Shown piece after piece: positions 3,001 to 63,207 of a stretch of 64,000 nucleotides of DNA. The translations under genes and the position numbers were made by a program. Location: assembly GCA_001244265.2 (NCBI GenBank), contig CDLV01000006.1:1-64000 (forward strand), written 5' to 3'. The notes beneath the pieces were generated by a model. The model did not search any database. It was given only the letters and a program-made list of their open reading frames with translations, and was not told the DNA's origin. Origin of the DNA: Microbotryum violaceum (lineage: Eukaryota). Every line of letters begins with the position of its first letter. Within the stretch, counting starts at the first letter, position 1.

Positions 3001-4925
3001 GCCCGCTCCTCAGTACCGCCGCGGCGCCACCATCGTCACCTCCAAATTCGTCTGGAAGACCAAGCGCGATGCACAGGGTGATATCACAGGGCGGAAGGCA
3101 CGCCTTGTTGCACAGGGAAATCGCCAGCGCGACGGCATCGACTTCTCGGAGACGTTCGCACCCGTCGCCGTTTCTCCTCCATTCGCTGCCTTCTCGCCCT
3201 TGCCGCTGCCAATGGCTACCACGTTCATCAGGCCGACATCGACAAGGCTTACCTTCACGGCGAGCTCGATCACGATATCTGGATGACGACGCCACGAGGC
3301 TTCGACTTCCTGGGCGACAAGGTTCTCCGGCTGCGACGCTCGATCTACGGTCTTAAGCAGGCCGGTCGCATCTGGAATCGCCACATCGACACATCACTTC
3401 GAAGTCTTGGGTACAAGGCAACGGGCACTGATCACTGCATTTACTCTCGCATTGATGATCAGAAGCAGCCCCATTATATCGCATTGTATGTCGACGATCT
3501 CCTCATTGTCAGCCCCGCCTCGACAAGATCGAGCGTTCATCTACGGCCTCGAACAACGATACGGCGTCAAACGGCTCGGCCCCGCAGAATACATCCTCGG
3601 CATCCAGATTCGACGCCTGGAAGACGGCTCCATTGCTCTATCCCAGGAGCGCTACATCATGGACGTGCTCGCCCGCTTCCACTTCGACACCACAACGCGC
3701 GGCGCTACGGTGCCAATGACGCCCGGCCTCTCGCTCACGCTGTACCGGTCAGGGAACGGAACGCATTCGGTCGTGGTACCTGCAAGCCATCGGCTCCCTC
3801 CTATACATTTCACTTGGCACTCGGCCCGACATTGCCTTCGCCGTCTCGTACCTGTCCCGGTTCGCCAACAACCCCGGCCGCCGCCATTGGATTGCCGTCA
3901 AACACGTCCTTCGCTACCTTCGCGCTACGTACCGCGATGAGCTACTCTACGCCTGTGGCCCGCCAAAATTACGGGTGTGGTTGGCTATTCTGATGCGAAC
4001 TGGGGTGCCTGCGTCGACACGTCCATCTCACAATGGGCTTCGTCTTTTACTTGGCCGGCTCCGCCGTCTCTTGGTCATCGAAGCGTCAGACTCGGGTAGC
4101 AGATTCCACCACTGATGCCGAATACCTCGCCTTGTCGCATGCTGGTAAGGAAGCGATTTACCTTACGCAACTCCTCTCCGAGCTCCACGTTCGCCCGGTC
4201 GATGCAGCCCACATTTTCACCGACAACGAGGCCGCCGCCGCCGTCGCTCACGACCCCGTTCGCACTTCGGGCACTCGACACATACGCCTCCGCGAGCACT
4301 TTGTCCGCGACATGGTCAACCAAGGCGAGATCTCTCTCTCACACGTCGGCACAGCGAACATGGTTGCAGACATATTCACCAAGGCGCTAGGTCCCAAGAT
4401 TTTCGGTGCACATTGCTATACTCTAGGTCTCCGGACGCGTCACCCACGGCTCAAGTCTACCTCGCGTTCGCGTGGGGGGGGGTGTGAAGAATCCACTCTC
4501 CGCTCGGCTCAGGACTTAGGCGCGCGGATCAAGCCGGGCGCATCGGCACAGGTCTTAGGCGCGCTGAGCGAGCCGGGCGCATCGGCAGAGGACTTAGGCG
4601 CGCGGAACGGGCCAGGCGCACCGGCTCAGGACTTAGGCGCGCGGGCGCAGGACTTAGGCGCGCGGAGCGAGCCTGGGACTTAGGCGCGCCGGCTCAGGTC
4701 TTAGGCGCGCGGAGCGCGCCTGGGACTTAAGCGCAGGGAACGAGCCTGGCCCAAGGGTCCCAGGCTGAGGACTTGAGGCGCGCGGCTCCCATACTGTTAG
4801 CTTCCTATTCATCACTCTTGGCTATAACTACATCGCTGACGTAGTAGAGTTGATCGAATAGGTATGTTGTAATATTCATCACTCTTGGCTATAACTACAT
4901 CGCTGACGTAGTAGAGTTGATCGAA
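1..4925 (+). mobile_element. Ty1/Copia LTR retrotransposon, family A, copy 1 (5' LTR outside window; many frameshifts)
   Basis: Domains run gag zinc knuckle ([14 protein letters not shown]), protease DSGAT, GAG-pre-integrase LHRCLGH, integrase ([13 protein letters not shown]), RT YVDD, RNase H (WSSKRQ, ADIFTK), which is the Copia order. Poly-G PPT at 4474-4482; LTR starts TGTGA at 4483. Confidence 0.95.
4483..4925 (+). repeat. Family A 3' LTR with GC-rich ~39-bp minisatellite and duplicated 3' end
   Basis: Matches LTRs at 5899-6243(-), 7826-8231, 12823-13226, 17579-17852, 22805-23078 and 26323-26588. Confidence 0.9.
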
Positions 4926-5898: not shown

Positions 5899-7825
<1,927 letters not shown>

Positions 7826-10800
7826 TGTGAGGAATCCACTCTCCGCTCGGTCCAGGACTTAGTGCGCGCGGAGCGAGCCGGCGCGCATCGCGCACGGACC
7901 TATGCGCGCGGAGCAAGCCTGGCGCCTCGGCTCGGGACTTAGGCGCGCGGAGCGAGCCGGGCGCATCAGGTCGGGACTTAGGCGCGCGGAGCGAGCCGGG
8001 CGAAATGGCTCGGGACTTAGGCGCGCGGAACGAGCCTGGCCTATTGGGTCAGCCCTGAGGCTCACTGGCTGAGAAATTGGGCGCGCGGCTCATTCACTGT
8101 TAGCTTCCTATTCATCACTCTTGGCTATAACTACATTGCTAACGTAGTAGAGTTGATCGAATAGGTATGTTGAAATGATTGATCACTCTTGGCTATAACT
8201 ACATTGCTGACGTAGTAGAGTTGATCGAATAGGTTATCAGCCCACGAGCTACCAGCCGCCACTCGCGTTTTTTTCCTCGAGCCTCAGCCACTCGAGCCGC
8301 ACACGTCCATCACACATCGCACGATGGACAGCTCCCCCAACACGCCCTCGCCCACAGGGACTCCAGCCCCCTCGCATCTTCGATCACGATCAAATCGCCA
8401 CTCTACAGGCCAGCTCGCCGCTCTGCAGGCTTCACAGCCCCCTGCCGCCGCCGCCTCCAGCCCACTGCCGCCGCCGTCGTCGCCAACCCGGCCACGGTCG
8501 CCACCGCGTCCAAAGTCGTGTTTCCAAACACGCTCGTCTCGATGGACCCAAGTCGTTTACGAACTGGTTACGACAACTTCGTCTCGCGCTTCCCAACCAA
8601 CTTCGTGCGTACGTTCTTGACAGCGTCGCCCCCGCTACGTGGACGGCCGATCAGCTTGCCGCCCGCGACGACACCGCCGCGGAAATCATCGTTGGCTCCA
8701 TCGACTCCGCCGACGTCTCGGCGACGCTCGACGCCATTCCGAGCGACGATCTCTCGGCCCCACGCATCTTCGCCGCCCTCAAGGCTCGTTTCGCACCGGA
8801 CGACGCTACCCGCACTCTTGAGTTGTTTGCCCGCCTTTGGGATTCAGAAAGATGCCCGCCTCCGTCGACGCATACGACACCTGGCTACGCGAATACATGT
8901 CCATTGCACAAGAAATTCGCGACACCAAAACATCGCTCAACGACGTACTCGCCACCCACGTGCTCGCCATGGTTCCGTCGTGTCTCGACAGCTTCCGCCT
9001 CACGTTCACGGACGAGCAACGCAACCAACGCGACCTTCCCGAGCTGACGACGCTGACGGACCGCATTCGCATACAACTTCGTTCGGCGGGGCTCTCCACC
9101 TCACATTCGGCCATGATTGCCACCACCTCCCTTGCCCCGCCTGCCACGCCCCGGCCACCGCCTGCGCGACTGCACCTCACGCGCTCAGTACCCCCTGCCG
9201 CCCCTGCCGTCGCTGCAACAAGAAGGGTCACTGGGCCCTCGACTGCAAACCACGAGGCGGCCAACAACGAACCGGCGACGACAACCAGTCCGGCATGCCC
9301 TCATCTGCAGTTCACCAACCGAATGTCGGTTATTTCGCCTCCGGCCTGTTCGCTCGCCGGCAACTGCCGACTGACGCCTTCGTCGTCGACTCGGGTGCCA
9401 CGACACACATGGTAGCGATCGCTCTCTCTTCACGGCTTATCGCAAACGGCACACACCAAGATTGGAGGCATAGCCGGCGGGATCACAGCCATTGGTATGG
9501 GAGACGTCGCTTCGTTGCCAAGACCGGACATCGATCACGCTGCGTGGAGTTCTGCACACGCCGGGCCTTCACGTCAACCTCCTCTCCGTCTCTCGCCTCT
9601 GCGACACCGACCGCGTTCGACTCGCCTTCACCAGCGACGGTATCGACATCGCCAAGGACGGCCAGGCCATCGCTCATGGTACCAGGGTTAACGACGGGCT
9701 CTACCTTTTGGATGCGGATCACTCCAGATGTCAGCAGCTTGCCTTGCTCTCACGTTCCGAGTCCCCCGTGCCCCTGCTTCCCTCCACCGCTGCCTCGGCC
9801 ATCTTGCCCCATCCTCTATACAGAAGATGATTGCCGCAGGTTTGCTACACGGGTTTGGGGCCGGGTACAGTGACAAAGACGTAGAGGAGTTTGTTTGCAA
9901 TGCTTGCCTTGGTTCCAAAGGTCACCGTCTCCCTTTTCCCGACTCGGAGTCGCATTCCCCCGAGAGACTTGGCCTTGTGCACAGCGATGTCCTGTCGTTC
10001 CCCACTCCGTCCTTGACCGGAAAGCGCTACCTTGTGACATTCCTTGACGATCACTCTCGCAAACTCTGGGCATACGCGATCGATCCCAAAAGCGACGTCT
10101 TCCCGACCTTCCAGACTTGGCTCGCTGAAGTGGAGTTACAGACGGACGCACGTTTAAGGATCCTTCGCACCGACAACGCGGCGAGTACCGATCCAACGCA
10201 TTTACGGAGTTCTGCAAGTCCAGGGGCATTCGTCGCCAATACTCTATTCCCTACACACCTCAGCAAAACGGTCGTGCCGAACGTGTCAACCTCTCCATCG
10301 TCGAGGGCGTCCTCGCCCTCCTTGCTGACTCTCATCTGCCGGCCACCTTCTGGGATGAAGCGGCTGCGTACTTCGTTTATTGCAAAAACAGGTGCTCACA
10401 CTCAGCTTTGGCCAAACAGACCCCGAATTAGCTTGGGACGGCCAACGCACCACGGCCACCGCCCTCCACCCGTTCGGCTGCGCGGCCTGGCTCACGGTCG
10501 CGCCGGACCTTCGCAGCAAGCTCGACCCCAAGGCCACGCGCGTGATTTCACCGGTTACGACCTAGCCTCCAAGGCCTTCCGTTTCTTCGACCATTCCGCC
10601 AACAAGATTGTACTTGGCCGAAATGCCACCTTCCTCGACGACGATTTCCCCGGCCTCCCAGCCAACACGCCAGTCGATGCGGACAACACCGAACGCGAGT
10701 TCACCATCCCCGCCGACACGTGCGTCCCCACCAGCACGCCCGCCCCGCCAGCACGCCCGCCCCGCCAGCACCCCGCCCCCGCCGTCAAGACCAGGACCCC

Positions 10801-13226
10801 ACTAGTAAGGTCGGCGCACATGGACGTCTCATCCTCTATTGATGATTCTACCATGAGCGCCGTTGACGTGGCCCCAGGGTACACTGGCGGATCCTTACTT
10901 AATTCTACAGACACCAGTCTTTCGTCGTCTCCGTCGCTCCCCCCGTTTTCGTCTCCCGCCACGTCCTCGGCCGGGGGACCGTCCATCGATGACTCGGATG
11001 ACCCGCTTGACCTTCTCAACTCCAACACCGCGGTTCGTACCTCAACCGATGGACGTACATCGGTCCGGACGACACCGGTGACAACCACACCCGCCGTGCC
11101 TCGCCCTCTGATGACGACTCACCTGACGAGATCGACTTCCTCTCTCGCCATCACCGCGCCTTTATCGCCACAGACGACGACGATCCCGCCCTCGAAGCCA
11201 TTGAACCCGTAAAATCAATCACTAGCGATCCTCAGACCTGGCGCGAAGCGATGTCCAGCGACGAGCACGACCTCTGGGCTCAAGCTGCTGCCAACGAGTT
11301 CACAGCCATGCGCAACGATTTCAAGGTGTTCACCATCAAGCCTCGCTCCTCGGTGCCGCCGGGCGCCACCATTGTCACCTCCAAATTCGTCTGGAAGACC
11401 AAGCGAAATGCACGCGGTGATATCACAGGGCGGAAGGCACGCCTTGTAGCACAGGGTAACCGTCAGCGCGATGGCATCGACTTCTCGGAGACTTTCGCAC
11501 CGTCGCTCGGTTCTCGTCCATTCGCTGCCTCCTCGCTCTTGCCGCTGCCTATGGCTATCACGTTCATCAGGCCGACATCGACAAGGCTTATCTGCACGGC
11601 GAGCTCGATCACGATATCTGGATGACGACGCCACGGGGTTTCGACTTCCCGAGCGACAAGGTTCTCCGGCTGCGGCGCTCGATCTACGGTCTTAAGCAGG
11701 CCGGTCGCATCTGGAATCGTCACATTGACACATCGCTCAGAAGTCTGGGTACAGGGCAACGGGCACTGATCACTGCATTTACTCTCGCATTGATGATCAG
11801 CAGCAAACCCACTACATCGCCTTGTATGTCGACGATCTCCTCATTGTCAGCCCGCCCTAGACGAAATCGAACGTGTCATCTCAGGCCTCGAACGGCGATA
11901 CGGCGTCAAACGACTTGGCCCGCGGAATACATCCTCGGCATCCAAATCCGCCGCCTGGAAGACGGTTCCATTGCTCTTTCCCAGGAGCGCTACATCATGG
12001 ACGTGCTCGCCCGGTTTCATTTCGACACCACAACCGAGGTGCTACGGTGCCAATGACGCCCGGCCTCTCACTCACGGCAGTCCCGGGTCAGGGAACGGAA
12101 CGCATTCGGTCGTGGTACCTACAAGCCATTGGCTCTCTCCTATACATTTCCCTTGGCACTCGCCCCGACATAGCCTTCGCCGTCTCGTATCTGTCCCGGT
12201 TTGCCAACAACCCCGGCCGCCGCCATTGGATTGCCGTCAAACACGTCCTACGCTACCTTCGCGCTACGTACCGCGATGAACTACTCTATGCCAGCGGTTC
12301 ACCAAAATTACAGGTGTGGTTGGCTATTCTGATGCGAACTGGGGTGCCTGCGTCGACACGTCCATCTCCACGATGGGTTTCGTATTTTACTTGGCCGGCT
12401 CCGCCGTCTCTTGGTCATCGAAGCGTCAGACTCGGGTAGCAGACTCCACCACCGATGCCGAATACCTCGCCTTGTCGCACGCTGGTAAGGAAGCGATTTA
12501 CCTTACACAACTCCTCTCCGAGCTCCATGTTCGTCCAATCGAGGCAGCTCACATTTTCACGACAACGAGGCCGCCGCCGCCGTCGCTCACGACCCCGTTC
12601 GCACTTCTGGCACTCGACACATACGCCTCCGCGAACACTTTGTCCGCGACATGGTAAATCGGGGTGATATCTCCCTCTCACACGTTGGCACAGCAAACAT
12701 GGTTGCAGACGTATTCACCAAAGCGCTTGGCCCCAAGATTTTCGGTACACATTGCTATGCTCTAGGCCTCCGGACGCGACACCCACGGATCAAGTCTACC
12801 TCGCATTCGCGTGGGGGGGGGGTGTGAGGAATCCACTCTCCGCTTGGTCCAGGACTTAGGCGCGCGGAGCGAGCCGGGCGCATCGCGCACGGACCTATGC
12901 GCGCGGAGCGAGCCTGGCGCCTCGGCTCGGGACTTAGGCGCGCGGAGCGAGCCGGGCGCATCAGGTCGGGACTTAGGCGCGCGGAGCGAGCCGGGCGAAA
13001 TGGCTCGGGACTTAGGCGCGCGGAACGAGCCTGGCCTATTGGGTCAGCCCTGAGGCTCACTGGCTGAGAAATTGGGCGCGCGGCTCATTCACTGTTAGCT
13101 TCCTATTCATCACTCTTGGCTATAACTACATTGCTGACGTAGTAGAGTTGATCGAATAGGTATGTTGAAATGATTCATCACTCTTGGCTATAACTACATT
13201 GCTGACGTAGTAGAGTTGATCGAATA
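7826..13226 (+). mobile_element. Full-length Copia family A element with two near-identical LTRs (7826-8231, 12823-13226)
   Basis: LTR-PBS-gag-PR-IN-RT-RH-PPT-LTR. Flanks (TTGTG / CACCA) are not a TSD, suggesting recombination with another copy. Confidence 0.95.
8232..8254 (+). promoter_or_regulatory. Primer binding site, half-tRNAiMet (hemivirus) type
   Basis: GGTTATCAGCCC directly follows the LTR and resembles the copia/Ty5-type GGTTATGRGCCC. Also present at 17853, 23079 and 14861-14872(-). Confidence 0.85.
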
Positions 13227-15449
13227 CACCAAATGTAGGGCGAGGCATTTGCGCTACATCGACGTGGAGGAGATCCAGACGGCCAGAGGCGATGGACTTG
13301 GACCGGGCAAAGGGGAGGGCATGTGCTTTGGAAGCGAGACAAGCATTGCAGTAAAAATCCCGGAGCTCCTGATCCTTATACACCCAATCCACCCAGTAAC
13401 CAAGCCTTTCTGCACAACGTTTTTGATTTGCGCAACGGGCAAGTGCGCGAGGCGACGGTGCAGAGTCAGCAAGGACACTTTGGTAGGGATGGCGAGGAGG
13501 GCTTTGGGCGTACAGGGTGTAGGTCAAGTGCCAAGGCGTACAGGTTGTTCCCGATGGCTTGAGCGGTAGCAACGACGGCACCCGAGGGACGGGCAATGCT
13601 TGCACAACGAGATGCGAAGGAGACGCGGTAGCCAAGTTGATCCAACTGGAAGACGGACAGCAGGTTGCATGGGAGATCCGGTACCAGGAGGACATTGGAC
13701 ACGGTGATGGGACCCGTTGAAGTCTGGATGCAAATGGTGCCGCAGCCGGTGGAAGGGAGGGAGCCGGCGACGCCTCCAACTCGTGGGCCTGCGACCGTGC
13801 GAAGCTCGGAAAAAAGGCCCCTGTCGTTCGTCATATGGCGATTAGCGCCCGAGTCAAGAAGCCAAGCCGATTTGCGAAATGGCGAAGGTGTTGCGAGGAG
13901 ACAGGCCGTGAACGACACAGAGTTGGGTGTGTCCACTGCGGCTGGTGACGCGACTGGCTGGGAGGCCTTCTTCTCGGCGGTGCGACGAGCTTGGTAGGCG
14001 GCGGCCCAGGCGGTGTCGGGGCATTCCCGGAGCCAGTGCAACTTGCGACAAGACGGATTTGGGCACGGCCTTGAACAGCCGTGGCGGGCCTGCGGGGTGG
14101 CGACGGCGGCGGCGGCAACAGGAGTATCGACGGGGCGGGCTTTGACATCGCGGTAAAGGCGCGTGAAGATCTCGGTGGCGGAGGGCATCGCAGTGGAATC
14201 GCCCTGGTCAGCAACGAAGGTGGTGCGCCAGGCGTCGAAGGACGAAGGAAGGCGAGCAAGCAAGTGCGAGGCGAAAAGGGCGTTCACGGTGACCTGCGAG
14301 TCCTGCAGCAGCCGGGCGTCGTTTTCGAAACTGTCGCGGAATTGCAGGAACAGGTCGGGAGTGACGGGCACAGGGTCGGAGCTGAAGAGGCGTTGGATGA
14401 CCGGTAGCAGATCAACAGCAGACACGGTGCCGTAGCGTTCGCGAAGTGCCTGCCAGACCTTGGGTGCTGCGAGCAATTCGTCGAGGTAAGGTGACAGGCC
14501 GGGAGGACAGTTTGCGAATCGACGGAGGCGCAAATGGAGGAGCAGGCGTAGTGGTCCCAGAGAGGGACATACAAAGCAGGCCAAGACTCGAGTGGTACGC
14601 CCGTGTTGAGGTAACGGACAACGCCGGAGGGCAGGCGTGAACGGATGGCGAGGACCCAGTCTCGGTAGCCGGACGAGTTGCGAAGCAGCTTGGTCGTAGC
14701 GAAGGCCGCAGAGTGGTGGGGCGGCGCAAGGGCGGCGCATCGGGCGTGGGCTCGCGGAGCTTGGCTTCAGGCGCGGAGGCGCCGGCGTCGGACATGTTGC
14801 GTAGGGTGAAAAAATAGAGCGAAGGGCGGGCACGGAGGTGGCCGCACTGGTAGCTCGGTTGGGCTAATAACCTGTGATGTTGTCACGCCTGCTCAAGCGG
14901 TGGTAAGTCTCTGATCGAAGGACCAAGGGAGACCAGACCAAGAAGTTGCTTTGTTACACACCTGCTCAAGCACTACAGTAAGTTACCACATCTAGAGGGG
15001 TGAAAGATGATAGGAAGAGTAGTGCTCACCTGCTCAAGCGGTGGTAAGTCTCTGATCAAAGGACCAAGGGAGACCAGACCAAGAAGTTGCTTTGTTACAC
15101 ACCTGCTCAAGCACTACAGTAAGTTACCACATCTAGAGGGGTGAAAGATGATAGGAAGAGTAGTGCTCACCTGCTCAAGCGGTGGTAAGTCTCTGATCGA
15201 AGGACCAAGGGAAACCAGACCAAGAAGTTGCTTGAGCAGGAGAGAAACCAGAGTGGGGCCATTTGGCTGGGCCCAAGTCAGCCCAGCCAAAGTCAGGCGC
15301 ACGGACCTGGCCCAGGTGCAGAGACCAGGCCCAGAGTGGGAGAGCTAAGGTGGTGAAAAGTAGGCCAAAAGTGATCAAAACGAAGAGAGGAGGATGTTGA
15401 GGTAGGTACAAGATACAAGAAGGACATGAAGGAGATATTTGATCTCACA
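13227..15449 (-). mobile_element. Copia family C 5' half (LTR, PBS, gag, protease, start of integrase)
   Basis: CPNPSCRKLHWLREC knuckle, WLLDSGA protease, LHRRLAH, CNACLASK, LLHVDV. PBS GGTTATTAGCCC at 14861-14872. Confidence 0.92.
14873..15449 (-). repeat. Family C 5' LTR (TG..CA) containing a 141-bp tandem repeat (~2.4 copies)
   Basis: TGTGAGATC...ACATCACA on the minus strand; repeat spans 14889-15231. Confidence 0.88.
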
Positions 15450-18400
15450 TGTCATTCCCGCCGACGCGCCAGCACCTGACACCGCCGACACGCACGGCCC
15501 CGCCGCCACGCCCGCCCCCGCCGTCAAGACGAGGACCCCACTAGTAAGGTCGGCGCACATGGACGTCTCATCCCCTCTTGATGATTCTGCCATGAGCGCC
15601 GTTGACGTGGCCCCAGGGTACACTGGCGGATCCTTACTTAATTCTACAGATACCAGCCCCTCGTTGTCTCCGTCGCTCGCCCCGATTTCGTCTCCCGCCA
15701 CGTCCTCAGGGGGTAACCGTCCATCGAGGACTCGGATGATCCGCTTGACCTTCTGCACTCCGACACCGCGGTTCGCCTCCGCCTGATGGACGTACATCAA
15801 TCCAACGACGACACCCTGGTCACACCCACACCCGCCGTTGGCCCCGGGCAGCCCTCCGACGACGACTCCCCTGATGAGATCGATTTCCTCTCTCGTCATC
15901 ACCGCGCCTTCATCGCCACCGACGACGACGACCCCACCTCGAAGCCATTGAGCCGGTCAAATCGATCACTAGCGACCCTCAGACCTGGCGTGAAGTGATG
16001 TCCAGCGACGAGCACAACCTCTGGGCTCAAGCCGCCTCCAACGAGTTCACCGCCATGCGCGACGATTTCAAGGTGTTCACCATCGAGCCTCGTTCCTCGG
16101 TACCACCGGGCGCCACCATTGTCACCTCCAAATTCGTCTGGAAGACCAAGCGCAATGCACAGGGTGATATCACAGGGCGGAAGGCACGCCTTGTCGCGCA
16201 GGGTAACTGCCAGCGCGACGGCATTGACTTCTCGGAGACGTTCGCACCCGTCGCCCGTTTCTCCTCCATTCGCTGCCTCCTTGCCCTTGCTGCTGCCAAC
16301 GGCTAGGACGTTCATCAGGCTGACATCAACAAGGCTTACCTTCACGGCGAGCTCGATCACGACATCTGGATGACGACGCCACAAGGTTTCGACTTCCCGA
16401 GCGACCAGGTTCTCCGGCTGCGGCGCTCGATCTACGGTCTTAAGCAGGCCGGTCGCATCTGGAATCGCCACATTGACACATCACTCAGGAGTCTTGGGTA
16501 CACGGCAACGGGCACTGATCACTGCATTTACTCTCGCATTGATGATCAGAAGCAGCCCCATTATATCGCATTATATGTCGACGATCTCCTCATTGTCAGC
16601 CCCGCCCTCGACGAGATTGAGCGTGTCATCTCCGGCCTCGAACAGCGATACGGCGTCAAACGACTCGGCCCTGCAGAATACATCCTCGGCATCCAGATTC
16701 GACGCCTGGAAGACGGCTCCATTGCTTTATCTCAGGAGCGCTAGATCATGGACGTGCTCGCCCGCTTTCACTTTGACACCACAACACGCGGCGCTACGGT
16801 GCCAATGACGCCCGGCCTCTCGCTCACGGCAGTACCGGGTCAGGGAACGGAACGCATTCGGTCGTGGTACCTGCAAGCCATCGTCTCCCTCCTATACATT
16901 TCACTCGGCACTCGCCCCAACATTGCCTTCGCCGTCTCGTACTTGTCCCGGTTCGCCAACAACCCCGGCCGCCGCCATTGGGTCACCGTCAAACATGTCC
17001 TTTGCTACCTTCGCGCTACGTACCGTGATGAGCTACTCTACGCCTGCGGTCCAACCAAGATTACAGGGTGGTTGGCTACTCCGATGCAAACTGGGGTGCC
17101 TGCGTTGACACGTCAATCTCCACAATGGGCTTCGTCTTTTACTTGGCCGGCTCCGCCGTCTCTTGGTCATCGAAGCGTCAGACTCGGGTAGCAGATTCCA
17201 CCACTGATGCCGAATACCTCGCCTTGTTGCATGCTGGTAAGGAAGCGATTTACCTTACACAACTCCTCTCCGAGCTCCACGTTTGCCCGGTCGATGCGGC
17301 TCACATTTTCACGGACAACGAGGCCGCGGCCGCCGTTGCTCACGACCCCGTTCACACCTCTGGCACCCGACACATACGCCTCCGCGAGCACTTTGTCCTC
17401 GACATGGTCCACCAAGGCAATATCTCCCTCTCACACGTCGGCACAGCAAACATGGTTGCGGACATATTCACCAAGGTGCTAGGTCCCAAGATTTTTGGTG
17501 TACATTGCTATGTTCTAGGCCTCCGGACGCGTCACCCACGGCTCAAGTCTACCTTGCGTTCGCGTCGGGGGGGGGGGGTGTGAGGAATCCACTCTCCGCT
17601 CGGCTCAGGACTTAGGCGCGCGGAGCGAGCCAGGCACATTGGCCCAGGGCTAGGCGCGCAGAGCGAGCCGGAGCGAGTCGGGCGCATCGGCTCAGGACTT
17701 AGGCGCGCGGAGCGAGCCAGGCGCATTGGCCCAGGGCTAGGCGCGCGGAGCGAGCCTGGGGAACTTGGGGCGCGCAGCTCTCACACTGTTAGCTTCCTAT
17801 TCATCACTCTTGGCTAGAACTACATCGCTGACGTAGTAAAGTTGATCGAATAGGTTATAAGCCCAACGAGCTACCAGCCCGCTGCTCGCTCGCATTTTTC
17901 CTCGAGCCCAGCCACTTGAGCCGCCCACGTCCATCGCACCATCGCACAATGGACAGTCGCGACCCCACCACGCCTTCGTCCCCCAGGGACCCCAGCCCTC
18001 TTGCGTCTTCGATCAGCAATCAACTCGCTACCCTGCAGGCCCAGCTCGCCGCTCTGCAGGCCTCGCAGCCCCCTGCCGGCCCCGCCTCTACTGCCGCTGC
18101 CTTGCAGCCCACTGCCGCCGCCGCCGCCACCACCACCGCATCAAAAGTCGTCTTTCCCAAGCACACTCGCCTAGACGGCTCCAAGTCGTTCACGAACTGG
18201 TTACGCCAGCTCCGGCTCACGCTCCCGAATCAGGTTCGTGGTTACGTCCTTGATGGCATCGTTCCCCCGACGTGGACGGCCGACCAGCTGGCCGCTCGTG
18301 ACGACGCCGCGCGGGAAATTATCGTCGGCTCGATCGACTCCGCCGACGTCTCAGTAACCCTCGACGCCATCCCAAGCGACGACCTGTCGGCGCCACGCAT

Positions 18401-22800: not shown

Positions 22801-23174
22801 GGGGTGTGAGGAATCCACTCTCCGCTCGGCTCAGGACTTAGGCGCGCGGAGCGAGCCAGGCACATTGGCCCAGGGCTAGGCGCGCAGAGCGAGCCGGAGC
22901 GAGTCGGGCGCATCGGCTCAGGACTTAGGCGCGCGGAGCGAGCCAGGCGCATTGGCCCAGGGCTAGGCGCGCGGAGCGAGCCTGGGGAACTTGGGGCGCG
23001 CAGCTCTCACACTGTTAGCTTCCTATTCATCACTCTTGGCTAGAACTACATCGCTGACGTAGTAAAGTTGATCGAATAGGTTATAAGCCCAACGAGCTAC
23101 CAGCCCGCTGCTCGCTCGCATTTTTCCTCGAGCCCAGCCACTTGAGCCGCCCACGTCCATCGCACCATCGCACA

Positions 23175-25037: not shown

Positions 25038-26588
25038 AAGATGATCGCTGCGGGTTTGCTGGACGGGTTTGGGGCCGGGTACAGTGACAAAGACGTAGAA
25101 GAGTTTGTTTGCAATGCTTGCCTTGGTTCCAAAGGCCATCGTCTTCCTTTTCCCGACTCGGAGTCACATTCCCCGAGAGACTTGGTCTCGTGCACAGCGA
25201 TGTCCTGTTGTTTCCCACTCCGTCCTTGACCGGGAAACGCTATCTTGTCACCTTCCTTGATGACCACTCTCGCAAACTATGGGCATACGCAATCGATCAC
25301 AAAAGTGACGTCTTCCCGACCTTCCAGACTTGGCTCGCCGAAGTGGAGTTAGAAACGGACGCGCGTCTACGGATCCTTTGCACCGACAACGGCAGCGAAT
25401 ACCGATCCAACGCGTTCACGGAGTTCTGCCAGTCCAGGGGCATTCGTCGCCAATACTCTATTCCATATACGCCTCAGCAAAACGGCCGTGCCGAACGTGT
25501 CAACCTCTCCATCGTCGAGGGCGTCCTCGCCCTCCTTGCTGACTCCCACCTGCCGGCCATCTTTTGGGACGAAGCGGCTGCATACTTCGTTTATTGCAAA
25601 AACAGGTGCTCACACTCAGCTTTGGCCAAACAGAATCCACAATTCGTTTGGAACGGCCAACGCACCACGACCACCGCCCTTCACCCGTTCGGCTGCGCGG
25701 CCTGGCTCACGGGCGCGCCGGACCTTCGCAGCAAGCTCGACCCCAAGGCCGCGCGCGTGATTTTTACTGGTTACGACCTTGCCTCCAAAGCTTTCCGGTT
25801 CTTTGACCATTCCACCAACAAGGTTGTGCTTGGCCGAAATGCCACCTTCCTCGACGACGACTTCCCCGGCCTACCAGTCAACACGTCCGTCGATGCGGAC
25901 GACGTCGAACGCCAGTTTGTCATTCCCGCCGACGCGCCAGGGCCTGACACCGCCGCCACGCCCGCTCCCGCCGTCAAGACGAGGACCCCACTAGTAAGGT
26001 CGGCGCACATGGACGTCTCATCCCCTCTTGATGATTCTGCCATGAGCGCCGTTGACGTGGCCCCAGGGTACACTGGCGGATCCTCAAGGATATAAAGTTA
26101 AAGCTTTAGAAGGAATTGGTTTCTGTAAATCTGATGAATTATTTAAAAACATGGTCCACCAAGGCAATATCTCCCTCTCACACGTCGGCACAGCAAACAT
26201 GGTTGCGGACATATTCACCAAGGCGCTAGGTCCCAAGATTTTTGGTGTACATTGCTATGCTCTAGGCCTCCGGACGCGTCACCCACGGCTCAAGTCTACC
26301 TCGCGTTCGCGTGGGGGGGGGGTGTGAGGAATCCACTCTCCGCTTGGCTCAGGACTTAGGCGCGCGGATCGAGCCAGGCGCACCGGCCCAGGGCTTAGGC
26401 GCGCAGAGCAAGCTGGGCACATCGGCTCAGGACTTAGGCGCGCGGAGCGAGCCGGGCGCATCGGCTCAGGACTTAGGCGCGCGGAGCGAGCCTGGAAACT
26501 TGGGGGCACGAGGCTCTCACACTGTTAGCTTCCTATTCATCACTCTTGGCTAGAACTACATCGCTGACGTAGTAGAGTTGATCAAATA

Positions 26589-35400: not shown

Positions 35401-35726
35401 TATCAAGTATTACAGGAGTCGAGAATCAGAGGGCATTTTAGTCCTTTAGATAAGGGCATTTCTGTCCTTTTCTCTTTTTATAGAGGTAGTAAGGTAGCAT
35501 ATTTACATCAAGCATATGCGAAGATATAGCATCCGGGAAAAGCCCTTTGGATTAGAAAAATTACGGGACAATCACCGGACTAAATCAAGATTTGGAAACT
35601 GTCATGAATTGAGAGCATAGACCTCATAGTGAGCCAAGTTTCACCTATATGAAAGGCTAGCAGGTTGCGGTGATACCACGATGTACGTATTCACGAAAAG
35701 AAGGTAGATAACAAAATTCTAAAAAG

Positions 35727-35807
35727 TGACCGAATCGGGAGTCGAACCCGAGTCCTTCGTAGTCAAGAATGGGAAACGAAGATTCTAAACCTCTAAACTA
35801 TTCGGTC
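35727..35807 (-). tRNA. tRNA-Gly(CCC) with ~8-nt intron
   Basis: Acceptor stem GACCGAA/TTCGGTC, T-arm TCGGG-TTCGACT-CCCGA, anticodon stem TTCGT/ACGAA with TT-CCC-A, 4-nt variable loop, and a TTTTT Pol III terminator right after. Confidence 0.9.
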
Positions 35808-35871
35808 AACTGCAGCATTGTCGAATTCCTCCCTTTAGATAAATAAAAGCGTAGATTTTGCGCACTTTTCA

Positions 35872-38800
35872 TCCCAGGTCTTCGCCGGTCCGAGCGTATC
35901 CAGCGTCTCACCAGCGTTGCGCGCACATCGGACTGGAACGAATCGACTGCTGCGGAAAAAAAAAATCCCAGGGTCTTCGCCGGTCCGAGCGTATCCAGCG
36001 TCTCACCAGCGTTGCGCGCACATCGGACTGGAACGAATCAACTGCTGCGGACCCTCTCCCGTCACCCACATTTGGACCTATGTTGTCCATCAAGGGAGCT
36101 GCTGCTGCAACGAAGGCGCGATCGTAATGATTGAGTTCATCATCATGACCTGGAACGTCAACAGGGGCTTCAATACCCCTGAACGACGTCGTCTGCTTCT
36201 TTCGTATCTCACTTCGCTCACACCTCCCCCTTCTGCTATCCTTCTCCAGGAACATAATGTTCCTAAAGCACGACAATCTCACATACGCCACGAGTATGCC
36301 CAGTCCCACCAGGGCGAGGCCTACTTTTCTCAACACTGCCTCACTTTGATTCCAAGCTCTTCTCCTCTTCTCGGTGGTCATCGTCGCACGCGTCAGTCTC
36401 TTGGCGGGCGCTTACTCGTGACCACCTTCGATGTGCGGGGTTCGATGGACGTCGTCGAACTCAACAATATCTACGCTCCGGTTCAACCCGCCGAGCGCCT
36501 CCTCTTCTTCACCTCCCTTCACTTTCGGGCGACCGTCTCCTCTCATATTCGGTTCATCGCGGGAGATCTCAACGACTGCCCTATTCCCGCGGTGGATCGA
36601 GCGCAACAGGTGGACCGCCCGAACACCCACCACTGGCCTGTGCTTATGTCTCGGCTCGACGGGGCGTACACGGATGCCATTTGGCTCATGCACCCACTGT
36701 CGCCGGCGACCACGCGCCCACATCTCAGCAAGGACGGCCAGCTCATTTCGCGCGCGCGCATCGACTTTGTTCTGGTGCAGCGGCGACACGAGCGACGGGT
36801 CGTTTCTGCTTCTACTCTGTACAATATCTCTCGATCCATGTCGGATCATCGACCGGTTACGGTCACATTTAGGCTGCGCGCAAGTGGTGCCGAGGTCGAA
36901 GAGGAGCTCTGCCTTCCCCAGGCGGCTCATTTTCTGACCCGCATCAACTCGTCGACCTTCAAACACGCCGAGTTTAAGGAGTTTGTCACTCCTCTCCTTG
37001 AGCAGGCGCCGTCTGGGGATCCGGTCGCGGACCTTCAGCGCGTACTCTCGGAGTCTCGGGTCCAAGCTCTCGAGCTGTCTCGGCGTCTGTTTCGGGAGCG
37101 CAACGCCCTTGAGATGATGCTGGTATCTCGACTGCAGGACATTGAGTCTCGTCGGGTGCTGAGCCCCTTCGATATTATCGACTGGACGAACACCCACGAC
37201 GCTCTCTCCAAGCTTGTGAACGAGCGAGCAAGGCAGTCCCGGATCAGGGCGCACGTTCCCGAGATTGCATCCGAGGAACATCTCAGTCGTCCGGTACATG
37301 CCAAACTGGCTGCTCGGTCCCGCGATGTGAAGTTTCAGAGTATCCGGCTCGCTGATGGCGAGCTCACCACTGACATTGAGCGCGCGCTCGAACACACCCA
37401 TTCTCATTTCCAGCAGCACTACCTTGTCGAAGCGAAGGATCCGGAACAGGTCGTGACAATGCGGGATGAGCTCTTGGGACCCATCAGATCAGCAAGACCT
37501 TGTGACGACCCGCTTTCCGACGCTCGCTTCCTTCGGCGGTTCTCGAATTCGCACGTCGACGTTCTGGCCGAGCCCATCAGCGAGGCCAAGGTGCTCGCAG
37601 CGATTCGAACCACGCACGAAGGTCGATCTCCGGGTCCTTCAGGGGTCCCCTATGAGATGTATCGAGCCTGCCCCCTGCTTTGGGCCCCTCTCTTGACTCG
37701 AGCCTACAACGAGCTGATTACTCGAGGCTCCCTTACTCCACAACAGAGCCAGGCCAATGTGCGCCTCTTGTTCAAACACAACAAACCTGGTGCAGCGCGG
37801 TGCGACCTCAAATCGTATCGTCCGATCACCTTGCGGGAATGCGACTACAAGATCTTCACCAAGGTCTACGTGGCTCGTCTGAACCGGATCCTCCCCGATG
37901 TTCTTCCGGCCGGACGGCATGGGTTCGTCAAGGGGCGAAGACCAGCGGACGCGGCTTTGCATCTGCGGCTCCTGATCGATGAGATTAGGGGTCGTGGGGC
38001 AGAGTTCCCGACAGCAGCGCTCCTCTCCCTGGATCAGAGCTCGGCTTACGACATGGTCGAGCACGACTGGGTCTTTGCGGTGTTTGAGGCTCTCGGCGCG
38101 CCGGAACCTTTCCAGCGCGTCTTGCGGATGCTCTACAACGGCGAGACGTCCACAGCGCGGTACATTGCCAACGGTTTCCTCACCGAGACGGTGCGACTCC
38201 TGTGCGGTCTTGGCCAGGGCAATCCTCTCTCTTCTTCTGTCTGGGATGTGGTATTCCAACCCTTCCTTGATTCTCTCAGTCGACGCAACATTGCGCTGAC
38301 TATCACTCTTCCGGAGCTGGCTCATCATCCGCAGACTCGATGCATCACCAATTTGGCGTTCGCGGATGACGCCGTCGTCGCTGTTGCTGGGCCGGAAGCT
38401 ATTGCTTCGCTCGAGGCGTTAGCTCGGGATTGGCGACTCGCGACGAACGGACGTCTAAACACCGACAAAACTGTGGTGATGCCATTGGGCGCGACGTTGT
38501 GGGATCGCGCGGACTTGTCCAAACTGTCGTTCGTGGCACCGGACGAGTCTCTTCCCTGGATCGGTCTCCAGTTTGCGCCTGACGGCAACAACAGGCTGGG
38601 ATTCCATGATCTTGAGCGAAGGGTTGATTGAGTGATTCTATCGGTGCGCGACCGATGGATGACGCACCATACCCGGGCTTTCTATCTCAACCGCTACGGC
38701 ATCTCCAAGGTGCTGCACTCTCTCTCCGCCGACATCCCGCCATCCGACGTGATCAAGTCGATCGAGCGCAAGCTTGCTGACTTTGTGAAGGGAGGCCCGC

Positions 38801-62045: not shown

Positions 62046-63207
62046 CTAGTACTCGACTTCTTCCTCGCCGCGCTCCACCGACCCAACCCTGGGCCGTAGC
62101 GCGTCAACTACCGGCGACCGGTCCCTGCTGACGTCATTGACTTGCACCTCGTTGTCGCCACTGCCGATGAGCTCTTGTCCAGCCGAGATTTGATCTTGAG
62201 AGGTTTGCTCAGCTTGGTCTTTAACCTCTTCAACGTTCTCTTGTAGCCGTAACGCCTTTTTCTTCATCTCGTCAATGTTGCCCTTTTCCATGCGGCTGTG
62301 TGCGAGCCATTCTGACTCTGCTTTCTTGATGCGGCGCGCGACATCCGCGACTTGATCATCCAGCTCGTTCTCTTGGCACTTCAGGAGGCGGAATGGCAGG
62401 TAGAAGATGGGTCGTTGTCTGTCTTGAGATACTATATGCTGTGATGAAAGAAGCTGGGCCGTATTGGGGAAAGACACCATATCGGAAGGTCCTGGCCGAT
62501 TGGACTTCGAGGGCGCGGCGTATAAAAACTCGGCTAGGTCGAGCTCGATTTCGTGTTGGGTTTGCATCTGGAAAATTCGAGACAAGACGTGAGGACCGTC
62601 ACCACCAGGGGCCATCCGGTACGAAGAGCGTTGTCGAAAGGAAAGGACTGACCGTTGCCTCCCACCTGGCTAGCTCCTCCTCCTTCAGCGAAATCGCGAG
62701 TACCAGGTCTCTCGCCTCTTTCGATCGATCTCGCTGGTCCATCATATGCTTCCTTTCGTCATGCAACTTTCTGTAAAGCTTATCCTCAAGTTGTTGTCTC
62801 TTCTTGGCCGCTTCGGATGTTTTGCTCGTGCCAGCTTGCTTCAGGGTATTCTGCAAGAGACCAAAAAATCGACGTCCTCGCTTCTGACTCTCGTCCGCGA
62901 CAATGCCAGATGCCTTTCGTTTTCTTGAAGCGAGTTCGTCTTGAGATTCTGTCAGCGCACGACCATTCTTGGCCCCGTCTTCTGAATGGATGTGGTGTGG
63001 GAGAGGGTTTGTCGCGGTTTCCGTCGCTGGCAAGTCGACTCCGCTGGCAGAGGCAACGGCTACAGAAAGTGCCCCGGGAGAGAGGGTGTTGGTGGAGGCC
63101 TGTTCTATAATGGTGCCTCCCGGAGATCCCGCTTCGTCCATGCTGTCATAAAGTGATCCTTGGCTGGGGCAGTCGACCGTGGCTTCCTTCAGGTCTGTTG
63201 TCGTCAT
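62046..63207 (-). CDS. Pinin/SDK/memA-domain protein (intron 62568-62652)
   Basis: KRGRRFFGLLQNTL, a coiled coil and PIFYLPFRL match Pinin motifs. A phase-0 GTCAGT..CAG intron joins the two ORFs in frame. Confidence 0.75.

Follow-up and report, generated by a model that had tools for sequence, protein, structure and literature searches.

The long terminal repeat (LTR) of a Ty1/copia-type retrotransposon in the anther-smut fungus Microbotryum violaceum raises the question of whether a stack of intron-like units in its 3′ half is a splicing device or a product of replication. The element, referred to as family C, lies at 13227-15449 of the window, the 64,000-nucleotide (nt) stretch of DNA analysed here (GenBank assembly GCA_001244265.2, contig CDLV01000006.1, positions 1 to 64,000); all coordinates are positions in this window, and the array is read on the minus strand. 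An initial annotation had described four back-to-back units, each running from GT to AG with no exon in between, and had proposed a recursive-splicing-like stack. Our preferred answer, held with moderate confidence, is that the units arose by ordinary tandem duplication, within the LTR, of hairpin modules of the leader, the intron-like phase of which follows from a single stem motif.

The segment 15240-14889 on the minus strand is made up of five abutting modules in the order A0, B1, A1, B2, A2, upstream of which lies a separate hairpin, H1. The features are as follows.
15262-15291, minus strand: hairpin H1, a stem of 12 base pairs (bp) with a 6-nt loop.
15240-15171, minus strand: module A0, 70 nt, a partial A unit without the GT start.
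15170-15103, minus strand: unit B1, 68 nt, GTGAGC...ACTTAC-N6-GCTTGAGCAG.
15102-15030, minus strand: unit A1, 73 nt, GTGTGT...ACTTAC-N4-GCTTGAGCAG.
15029-14962, minus strand: unit B2, 68 nt, equal to B1 in sequence.
14961-14889, minus strand: unit A2, 73 nt, one base unlike A1 and followed by CAG|GC, hence without a donor-like site behind it.

The array takes up LTR positions 210-561, and just 16 nt of the LTR lie beyond it. With 98% identity, B1 and B2 the same and A1 and A2 one base apart, the repeat is young and exact; Tandem Repeats Finder reports it at 14888-15233 with a period of 141, 2.5 copies, 98% matches, 0 indels and a score of 678. A1 is the same as A0 from AAGCAAC on, save for two bases, and is without the 5′ stem arm found in A0. 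All A and B units share ACTTAC, a spacer of 4 or 6 nt, the terminal GCTTGAGCAG and then GTG. CAG|GT stands at four junctions (15171/15170, 15103/15102, 15030/15029 and 14962/14961), and the last junction, 14889/14888, reads CAG|GC.

On the minus-strand reading, the unit coordinates, lengths and start motifs given in the initial annotation are all as claimed, and ACTTAC near the unit ends and the CAG|GT junctions are present in 4/4 units. Its statement that the two unit types are otherwise unrelated also agrees with our comparison, in which the A and B cores score -4.5 when aligned, no better than the shuffles, which average -4.51 and reach at least this score in 1019 of 2000 cases. The upstream inverted copy that it had noted corresponds to a plus-strand match at 15230-15242 to the 13-nt motif GCTTGAGCAGGTG. 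With up to two mismatches allowed, the window has 10 occurrences of this motif where 2.21 are expected (0/100 shuffles reach 10), and five of the occurrences lie on the minus strand within 14886-15180, four of them exact and one with one mismatch. The B1 core, AGCACTAC...GTAGTGCT, has a perfect 8-bp terminal inverted repeat with the 10-nt TGAGCAGGTG directly on both sides, and A and B have ACTTAC and GCT in common beyond this 10-nt direct repeat. Each B unit also contains a miniature upstream open reading frame of two codons, ATG TGG TAA (15127-15135 and 14986-14994, minus strand); should the array be part of the leader, unspliced RNA would have two of these frames ahead of gag.

RNA folding, one of the checks that the initial annotation had called for, identifies A0 as a very stable hairpin. 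It folds at -30.9 kcal/mol (z -4.72, 0/200 shuffles as good), forming a nearly unbroken stem-loop that is closed by CCTGCTCAAGC / GCTTGAGCAGG, and the 46 nt around H1 (15300-15255) fold at -25.9 kcal/mol (z -3.61, 0/200 shuffles fold as well). B alone has an ordinary fold (z 0.26, 115/200 shuffles as good), and A1 alone is no better than shuffles (z 0.17). The ACTTAC of A0 is base-paired inside the stem, and its presence there is explained by stem complementarity. The 3′ arm of the A0 hairpin holds CAGGTG and is the motif shared behind all junctions; all four CAG|GT junctions are copies of this one 13-nt motif. Since CAG|GT is the consensus of donor and acceptor alike, any tandem repeat that holds AGGT shows GT..AG units with zero-length "exons".

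We regard it as roughly an even proposition that the region is a duplication made during replication in the 3′ half of the LTR, on its R/U5 side, with no dedicated recursive-splicing device. The conserved functional piece would be the 70-nt stem-loop of A0, which is closed by CCUGCUCAAGC/GCUUGAGCAGG and stands behind H1; A0 may be a leader or R-region structure of the genomic RNA, such as retroelements employ in strand transfer, priming or packaging. With CAGGTG in the 3′ arm of the stem, any segments repeated so as to end there would place CAG|GT at every boundary. An earlier A-B-A state is implied by the length of the repeated span, 2.47 units (about 15233-14886), and the likely order of events runs from A, with a 73-nt period, through A-B-A to the 141-nt duplication. 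Deletion and duplication between direct repeats are frequent with reverse transcriptases, and tandem repeats are common in LTRs; template switching by the reverse transcriptase, or else unequal recombination, at the shared motif of 13-23 nt probably brought about the expansion. B may be a sister module that has diverged, or a small insert with 8-bp inverted ends and a 10-nt direct repeat of its target.

By sequence, the host of the array is a truncated, frameshifted Ty1/copia LTR retrotransposon, composed of the following parts.
15449-14873, minus strand: family C LTR, Ty1/copia-type, 577 nt, termini TGTGAGAT...ACATCACA.
15241-15449, minus strand: 5′ side of the LTR, pyrimidine-rich and repeat-free, presumably U3 and the beginning of R.
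14873-14888, minus strand: LTR tail GCGTGACAACATCACA, 16 nt.
14847-14872, minus strand: segment GGTTATTAGCCCAACCGAGCTACCAG resembling a primer-binding site (PBS), directly behind the LTR.
13227-14795, minus strand: gag, protease and the start of integrase, frameshifted, with an ATG at 14795 and cut at 13227.

The designation as an LTR, taken over from the initial annotation, is borne out by its inverted TG..CA termini (TGTGA...TCACA), by the end of similarity to the flanking multi-copy copia family at the 15449/15450 boundary, by the PBS-like segment, and by gag, protease and integrase downstream. Over 27 nt, the PBS-like segment is 92.6% identical to 17852-17877 and 23078-23103 and 88.9% identical to 8231-8255, and these three segments stand directly behind LTR ends of the other copia family. 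The LTR tail was considered as the source of the 5′ end of unit A, which would fix the phase of the duplication, and was rejected, as 619 of 5000 shuffles score as high. The family C body contains Pol_BBD (PF22936, E 1.6e-18), with an integrase N-terminal motif in the next frame. Its closest proteins are M. silenes-dioicae copia polyproteins at 97% identity, with a 1262-amino-acid protein carrying rve and Pol_BBD, and in the best homologues Pol_BBD is followed by rve and RVT_2 (PF00665, PF07727); the reverse transcriptase part is absent from the truncated family C copy.

The stretch 13227-15449 is single-copy in the window, as is the 5′ LTR part at 15241-15449, and both flanks belong to an abundant copia-like family, an LTR end of which cuts the family C body at 13227. 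No second family C LTR is found within the window, and the reverse transcriptase region and the 3′ LTR likewise lie outside it. At 15449/15450 the family C LTR terminus adjoins the interior of an abundant-family copy, and at 13226/13227 an abundant-family LTR terminus adjoins the family C integrase region; judged from these junctions, the boundaries look like nested insertions. Over 13227-14880, the copy is decayed relative to contigs of other genomes, which have one inserted base at each of 13391, 13524, 14498 and 14714 and lack 6 nt at 14104. Transitions predominate among the contig differences (e.g., A>G 10-13 and G>A 4-9 per run), and hypermutation of copia elements resembling repeat-induced point mutation is mentioned for the Microbotryum genome in PMC4469406.

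Two M. silenes-dioicae gene models touch the same LTR type. P0001 (1262 amino acids) is a chimera that runs from a copia polyprotein through a family C-type LTR into the gag of another copia element, its residues 801-832 matching 15268-15173 at 96.9%, and P0006 has an A0-like peptide followed by unrelated residues. Both are chimeric transposon models with predicted introns and were not used as evidence on unit order.

The abundant copia family offers a parallel in an LTR of unrelated sequence.
8165-8232, plus strand: 68-nt LTR-end duplication, GTATGT...CTGAC...TAG, on the sense strand and abutting the PBS.
13160-13226, 4861-4925 and 5899-5967, minus strand: further LTR ends with the 68-nt duplication.
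4504-4749, 7855-8040, 12852-13035, 17613-17756, 22839-22982 and 26346-26492: GC-rich 39-nt arrays.

The 68-nt duplication is present in four of the seven abundant-family LTR ends in the window, and the other three have a single unit; the likeness that the initial annotation had drawn to an unrelated LTR family is upheld by this 68-nt intron-like unit next to the PBS. Duplications of this kind therefore recur in these elements. A 14-nt spacer behind the first copy of the 68-nt unit begins with GGT, as the PBS does. The two families have in common the PBS-like GGTTAT[T/C/A]AGCCCA..GAGCTACCAG, at 14847-14872 on the minus strand and at 8232-8257, 17852-17877 and 23078-23103 on the plus strand. The segment is unlike the complement of a transfer RNA (tRNA) 3′ end, and its sequence suggests priming by an internal tRNA region for both families, a mode of priming described for copia and Ty5. 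The GC-rich 39-nt tandem arrays (GGACTTAGGCGCGCGGAGCGAGCC...) begin about 26 nt past the start of the abundant-family LTR, i.e., in its U3, and loose ends of contigs suggest that other LTR types join similar GC-rich sequence with the A block. Elsewhere in the window, a tRNA-Glu gene (35726-35807, minus strand) lies just upstream of an open reading frame resembling a long interspersed nuclear element (35917-38631, Exo_endo_phos and RVT_1), and a 95-nt tandem repeat that ends in an A run occupies 35871-36051.

In terms of splicing signals, the array is an arrangement that shuffled sequence seldom gives. We used a loose intron pattern with a GT[AG]NG[CT] start, a YAG end and a CTNAY whose A lies 8-40 nt before the end. 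On the minus strand of the 141-nt unit there are two AG|GT junctions and both segments match this pattern; the plus strand has 0 AG|GT junctions and no intron-like segment. All four units have GT..AG ends with extended donors (GTGAGC, GTGTGT) and CAG, and CTTAC precedes CAG by 15-17 nt. The element does have splice-like signals on its sense strand, these are rarer in shuffled sequence, and the intron-like pattern is not trivially expected. As a host yardstick (n=1), the single host intron checked, at 62568-62652 (minus strand), measures 85 nt and reads GTCAGT...CTCAC...CAG; it lies in a pinin/SDK/memA-like gene that is 98% identical to its M. silenes-dioicae orthologue and is confirmed by alignment to that orthologue, P0020. 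This one intron serves as the yardstick because PMC4469406, the Microbotryum genome paper, offers no consensus for introns.

Several of these results weigh against a mere duplication of hairpin modules. Among dinucleotide-preserving shuffles of the 141-nt unit, every AG|GT segment is intron-like in 127 of 20000 and at least two intron-like AG|GT segments occur in 0 of 20000, under a null that takes the two junctions as independent, whereas both are one duplicated motif. Two of the nine tandem repeats of period 47-223 in the window are fully intron-like, and both are on a copia sense strand at the 3′ end of an LTR. ACTTAC and GCT are kept in B, the stem of which can do without them, and this sharing suggests constraint on a bipartite motif. 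Unit sizes of 68 and 73 nt are near that of the 85-nt host intron. The structural role of A0, which we infer from its fold, has no counterpart in Rfam, where no family is matched at E<=1 in 14780-15500; across the whole window only a tRNA reaches the gathering score. A tRNA- or small nuclear RNA (snRNA)-derived piece in A was also considered and is unsupported by ARAGORN or Rfam; the model for this rejected idea was the terminal-repeat retrotransposons in miniature with small-RNA sequences described in PMC10886601.

We further compared the array with contigs of other genomes. Of 24 sequencing runs listed, 20 contain part of the stretch, and none of these 20 is listed as RNA; contigs from four runs were aligned (X2 and X15, which are DNA, and X17 and X19, taken by guess as RNA), all of them Logan 31-mer contigs. 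A and B units are both covered by contigs in 4/4 runs. The block 15245-15168 is common to other genomes in other contexts, the A block having unlike neighbours at 15168/15169 ("before") in X19, X2 and X15 and at 15243/15245 ("behind") in X17 and X2. A is directly followed by A in two of the four runs (at 14972, "behind", in X17 and X15, and at 15027, "before", in X15), and X19 has a B-like variant with a different 5′ part and a loose end at 14985. In summed contig depth, which gives no copy number, the A bins are several-fold above the unique part of the LTR and 15252-15401 is at about 3x the internal region in three runs, the latter a weak hint; as another weak hint, the B bins are far below the A bins.

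The initial annotation had expected that splicing would reveal itself in copies that lack one unit exactly at AG|GT. The A-A junctions of two of the four runs are such copies, but they do not speak for splicing in particular: given the 13-nt direct repeat on either side of the units, the same A-A product is predicted by recombination, by reverse-transcriptase template switching and by retrotransposition of spliced RNA. No joint that skips 68, 73, 141 or 282 nt is listed among these contigs, which break in the repeat and in which a spliced junction would share its 31-mers with A2 and the tail; 31-mer contigs are blind to full splicing because the ends of A0 and A2 are the same for more than 31 nt. 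The sole joint, 13514->13925, skips 410 nt between GG and TT in one X17 contig, has no canonical splice ends on either strand and probably reflects a derivative of the element with a deletion. The 23-nt motif at the end of unit A gave 0 matches in a metagenome scan, and megablast against phage records, a collection of little relevance here, gave no match.

That the units are real U2-type introns in the 5′ leader, with any donor joined to any later acceptor, is possible, and we consider it rather unlikely. One-step or stepwise splicing would remove up to 282 nt and restore a leader made of A0 and the tail, and the introns would have been born by duplication of an AGGT segment; they could part a spliced, translated RNA from an unspliced, packaged one. 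This account draws on the GT..AG ends, the GTRNGY donors, CTNAC 15-17 nt before CAG, the pyrimidine-rich interior and lengths of 68 and 73 nt, on a pattern rarer than in shuffles, and on the even better 68-nt unit (GTATGT, CTGAC, TAG) on the sense strand of the other family, next to its PBS. The CTCAC of the 85-nt host intron means that CTNAC may suit this host, B-less A-A junctions in the DNA of other genomes are what retrotransposed, partly spliced RNA would leave, and duplication alone can yield a working intron according to Hellsten et al. (PMC3265369). However, a repeated donor-like or stem motif mimics such a stack, CAG|GT reading also as an acceptor, ACTTAC is base-paired in A0, and the A-A junctions are explained equally well by recombination at the 13-nt repeat. 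Efficient splicing would moreover strip the units from new copies, because the 5′ leader is the template for U5 in both new LTRs and spliced genomic RNA would give rise to unit-less copies, yet A and B units are both present in the contigs of all four runs. If the units are excised, they are duplication-born introns and not a case of animal-type recursive splicing, which is unneeded because units of 68-73 nt are no longer than the 85-nt host intron. A broader form of this account, in which anther-smut copia elements of two unrelated LTR families would tolerate or exploit leader duplications because these are spliceable, is unlikely; a compact spliced leader would then serve translation, the unspliced, hairpin-rich RNA would be copied, and the transcript would have two fates.

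Tandem repeats in LTRs are classically U3 enhancers, and the array could consist of enhancer or promoter modules acting at the DNA level, with a CAGGTG/CACCTG E-box-type site every 68-73 bp. Transcription would have to start within the last units, so that most units belong to U3. The motif is conserved across otherwise unrelated units, and the LTR sequence has no TATA-like element for an upstream start; but the 16 nt of LTR after the array leave too little room for R and U5, save with a start within the array itself, no feature is stronger than the RNA-type hairpin, and fungal core promoters are pyrimidine-rich, as are the first 209 nt of the LTR. We take this reading to be quite unlikely. Known miniature inverted-repeat transposable elements (MITEs) are far larger than 58 nt, the length of the B core, and this counts against B as a miniature mobile insert, with 8-bp inverted ends and a 10-nt target duplication TGAGCAGGTG, that entered an A-A array. 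An AG|GT in the duplicated target would make such an insert spliceable in the manner of an introner. The perfect AGCACTAC/GTAGTGCT are directly bordered by the same 10 nt on both sides, the "empty" A-A junction is present in other genomes, and introners are reported in basidiomycetes in PMC12130899. There is, however, no further B copy in the 64-kb window, the summed depth of the B bins is much lower than that of the A bins (a weak hint), A likewise has ACTTAC and GCT, which lie beyond the putative target duplication, and the B hairpin is no more stable than shuffles; we judge the insert very unlikely. It would take the plus strand to be the active one for GTAAGT, the complement of ACTTAC and a perfect donor hexamer found in both unit types and twice per 141 nt, to act as an antisense donor or a U1-binding site. 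With no AG|GT junction and no intron-like segment on that strand, no antisense gene or open reading frame evident, and the A0 hexamer explained by stem pairing, this is extremely improbable.

Tandem duplication of the hairpin modules, the reading that we prefer, also has known counterparts. Tandem repeats in retroviral and LTR-retrotransposon LTRs arise by template switching or unequal recombination; the array resembles them in its young, exact head-to-tail repeat bounded by short direct repeats and in the variation of its units from copy to copy (A-A versus A-B-A), the second family in the window being alike. It differs from them in that the unit is bipartite, with two unrelated cores, one end motif and a phase that coincides with splice-like signals. 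The two consecutive stable hairpins, H1 and A0, in the 3′ half of the LTR and upstream of the PBS recall the R/U5 hairpins of retroviruses, namely the trans-activation response element (TAR) and the poly(A) hairpin; in contrast to these, there is no sequence or Rfam relation and the leader role is predicted.

Comparison with systems that generate or process introns yields partial likenesses. A potato RNA-dependent RNA polymerase gene is reportedly a case of intron creation by AGGT tandem duplication. As in the model of Rogers and the experiments of Hellsten et al. 2011 (PMC3265369), AGGT is in duplicate and, by construction of the sequence, removal from GT to AG restores the original; here, unlike there, a transposon leader takes the place of a coding exon, several units abut, and excision is putative. 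The array shares with the ratchet points of recursive splicing the juxtaposed CAG|GT with no exon between, CAG|GTGAGC and CAG|GTGTGT regenerating a donor at the four junctions at the level of sequence. Recursive splicing serves very long animal introns, whereas the array measures 282 nt, its units are 68-73 nt, short enough for removal in one step, and its sites are copies of one motif. Unit B resembles introners (PMC12130899) in that it is short, has inverted ends and is bordered by a direct repeat that gives AG|GT, and its 8-bp ends with TGAGCAGGTG have the form expected of an introner or MITE; it differs in being without dispersed copies in the window, outside a host gene and much shorter than the families described. 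The array is not a stwintron, as the units abut and no donor, branch or acceptor is split. In the literature searched, we found no report of such an intron-like stack in a fungal LTR.

If the array is a mere template-switch duplication, it is routine LTR anatomy in a transposon-dense, decaying Microbotryum region. More generally, any tandem repeat that holds AGGT mimics stacked introns, and comparison of DNA copies cannot test splicing where direct repeats flank the units. If the units are excised, the LTR would instead represent natural, recent and repeated intron birth by tandem duplication in a mobile element, for which the copy number of the element would supply many replicates, and it would offer a handle on how a retroelement partitions its RNA between spliced and unspliced forms.

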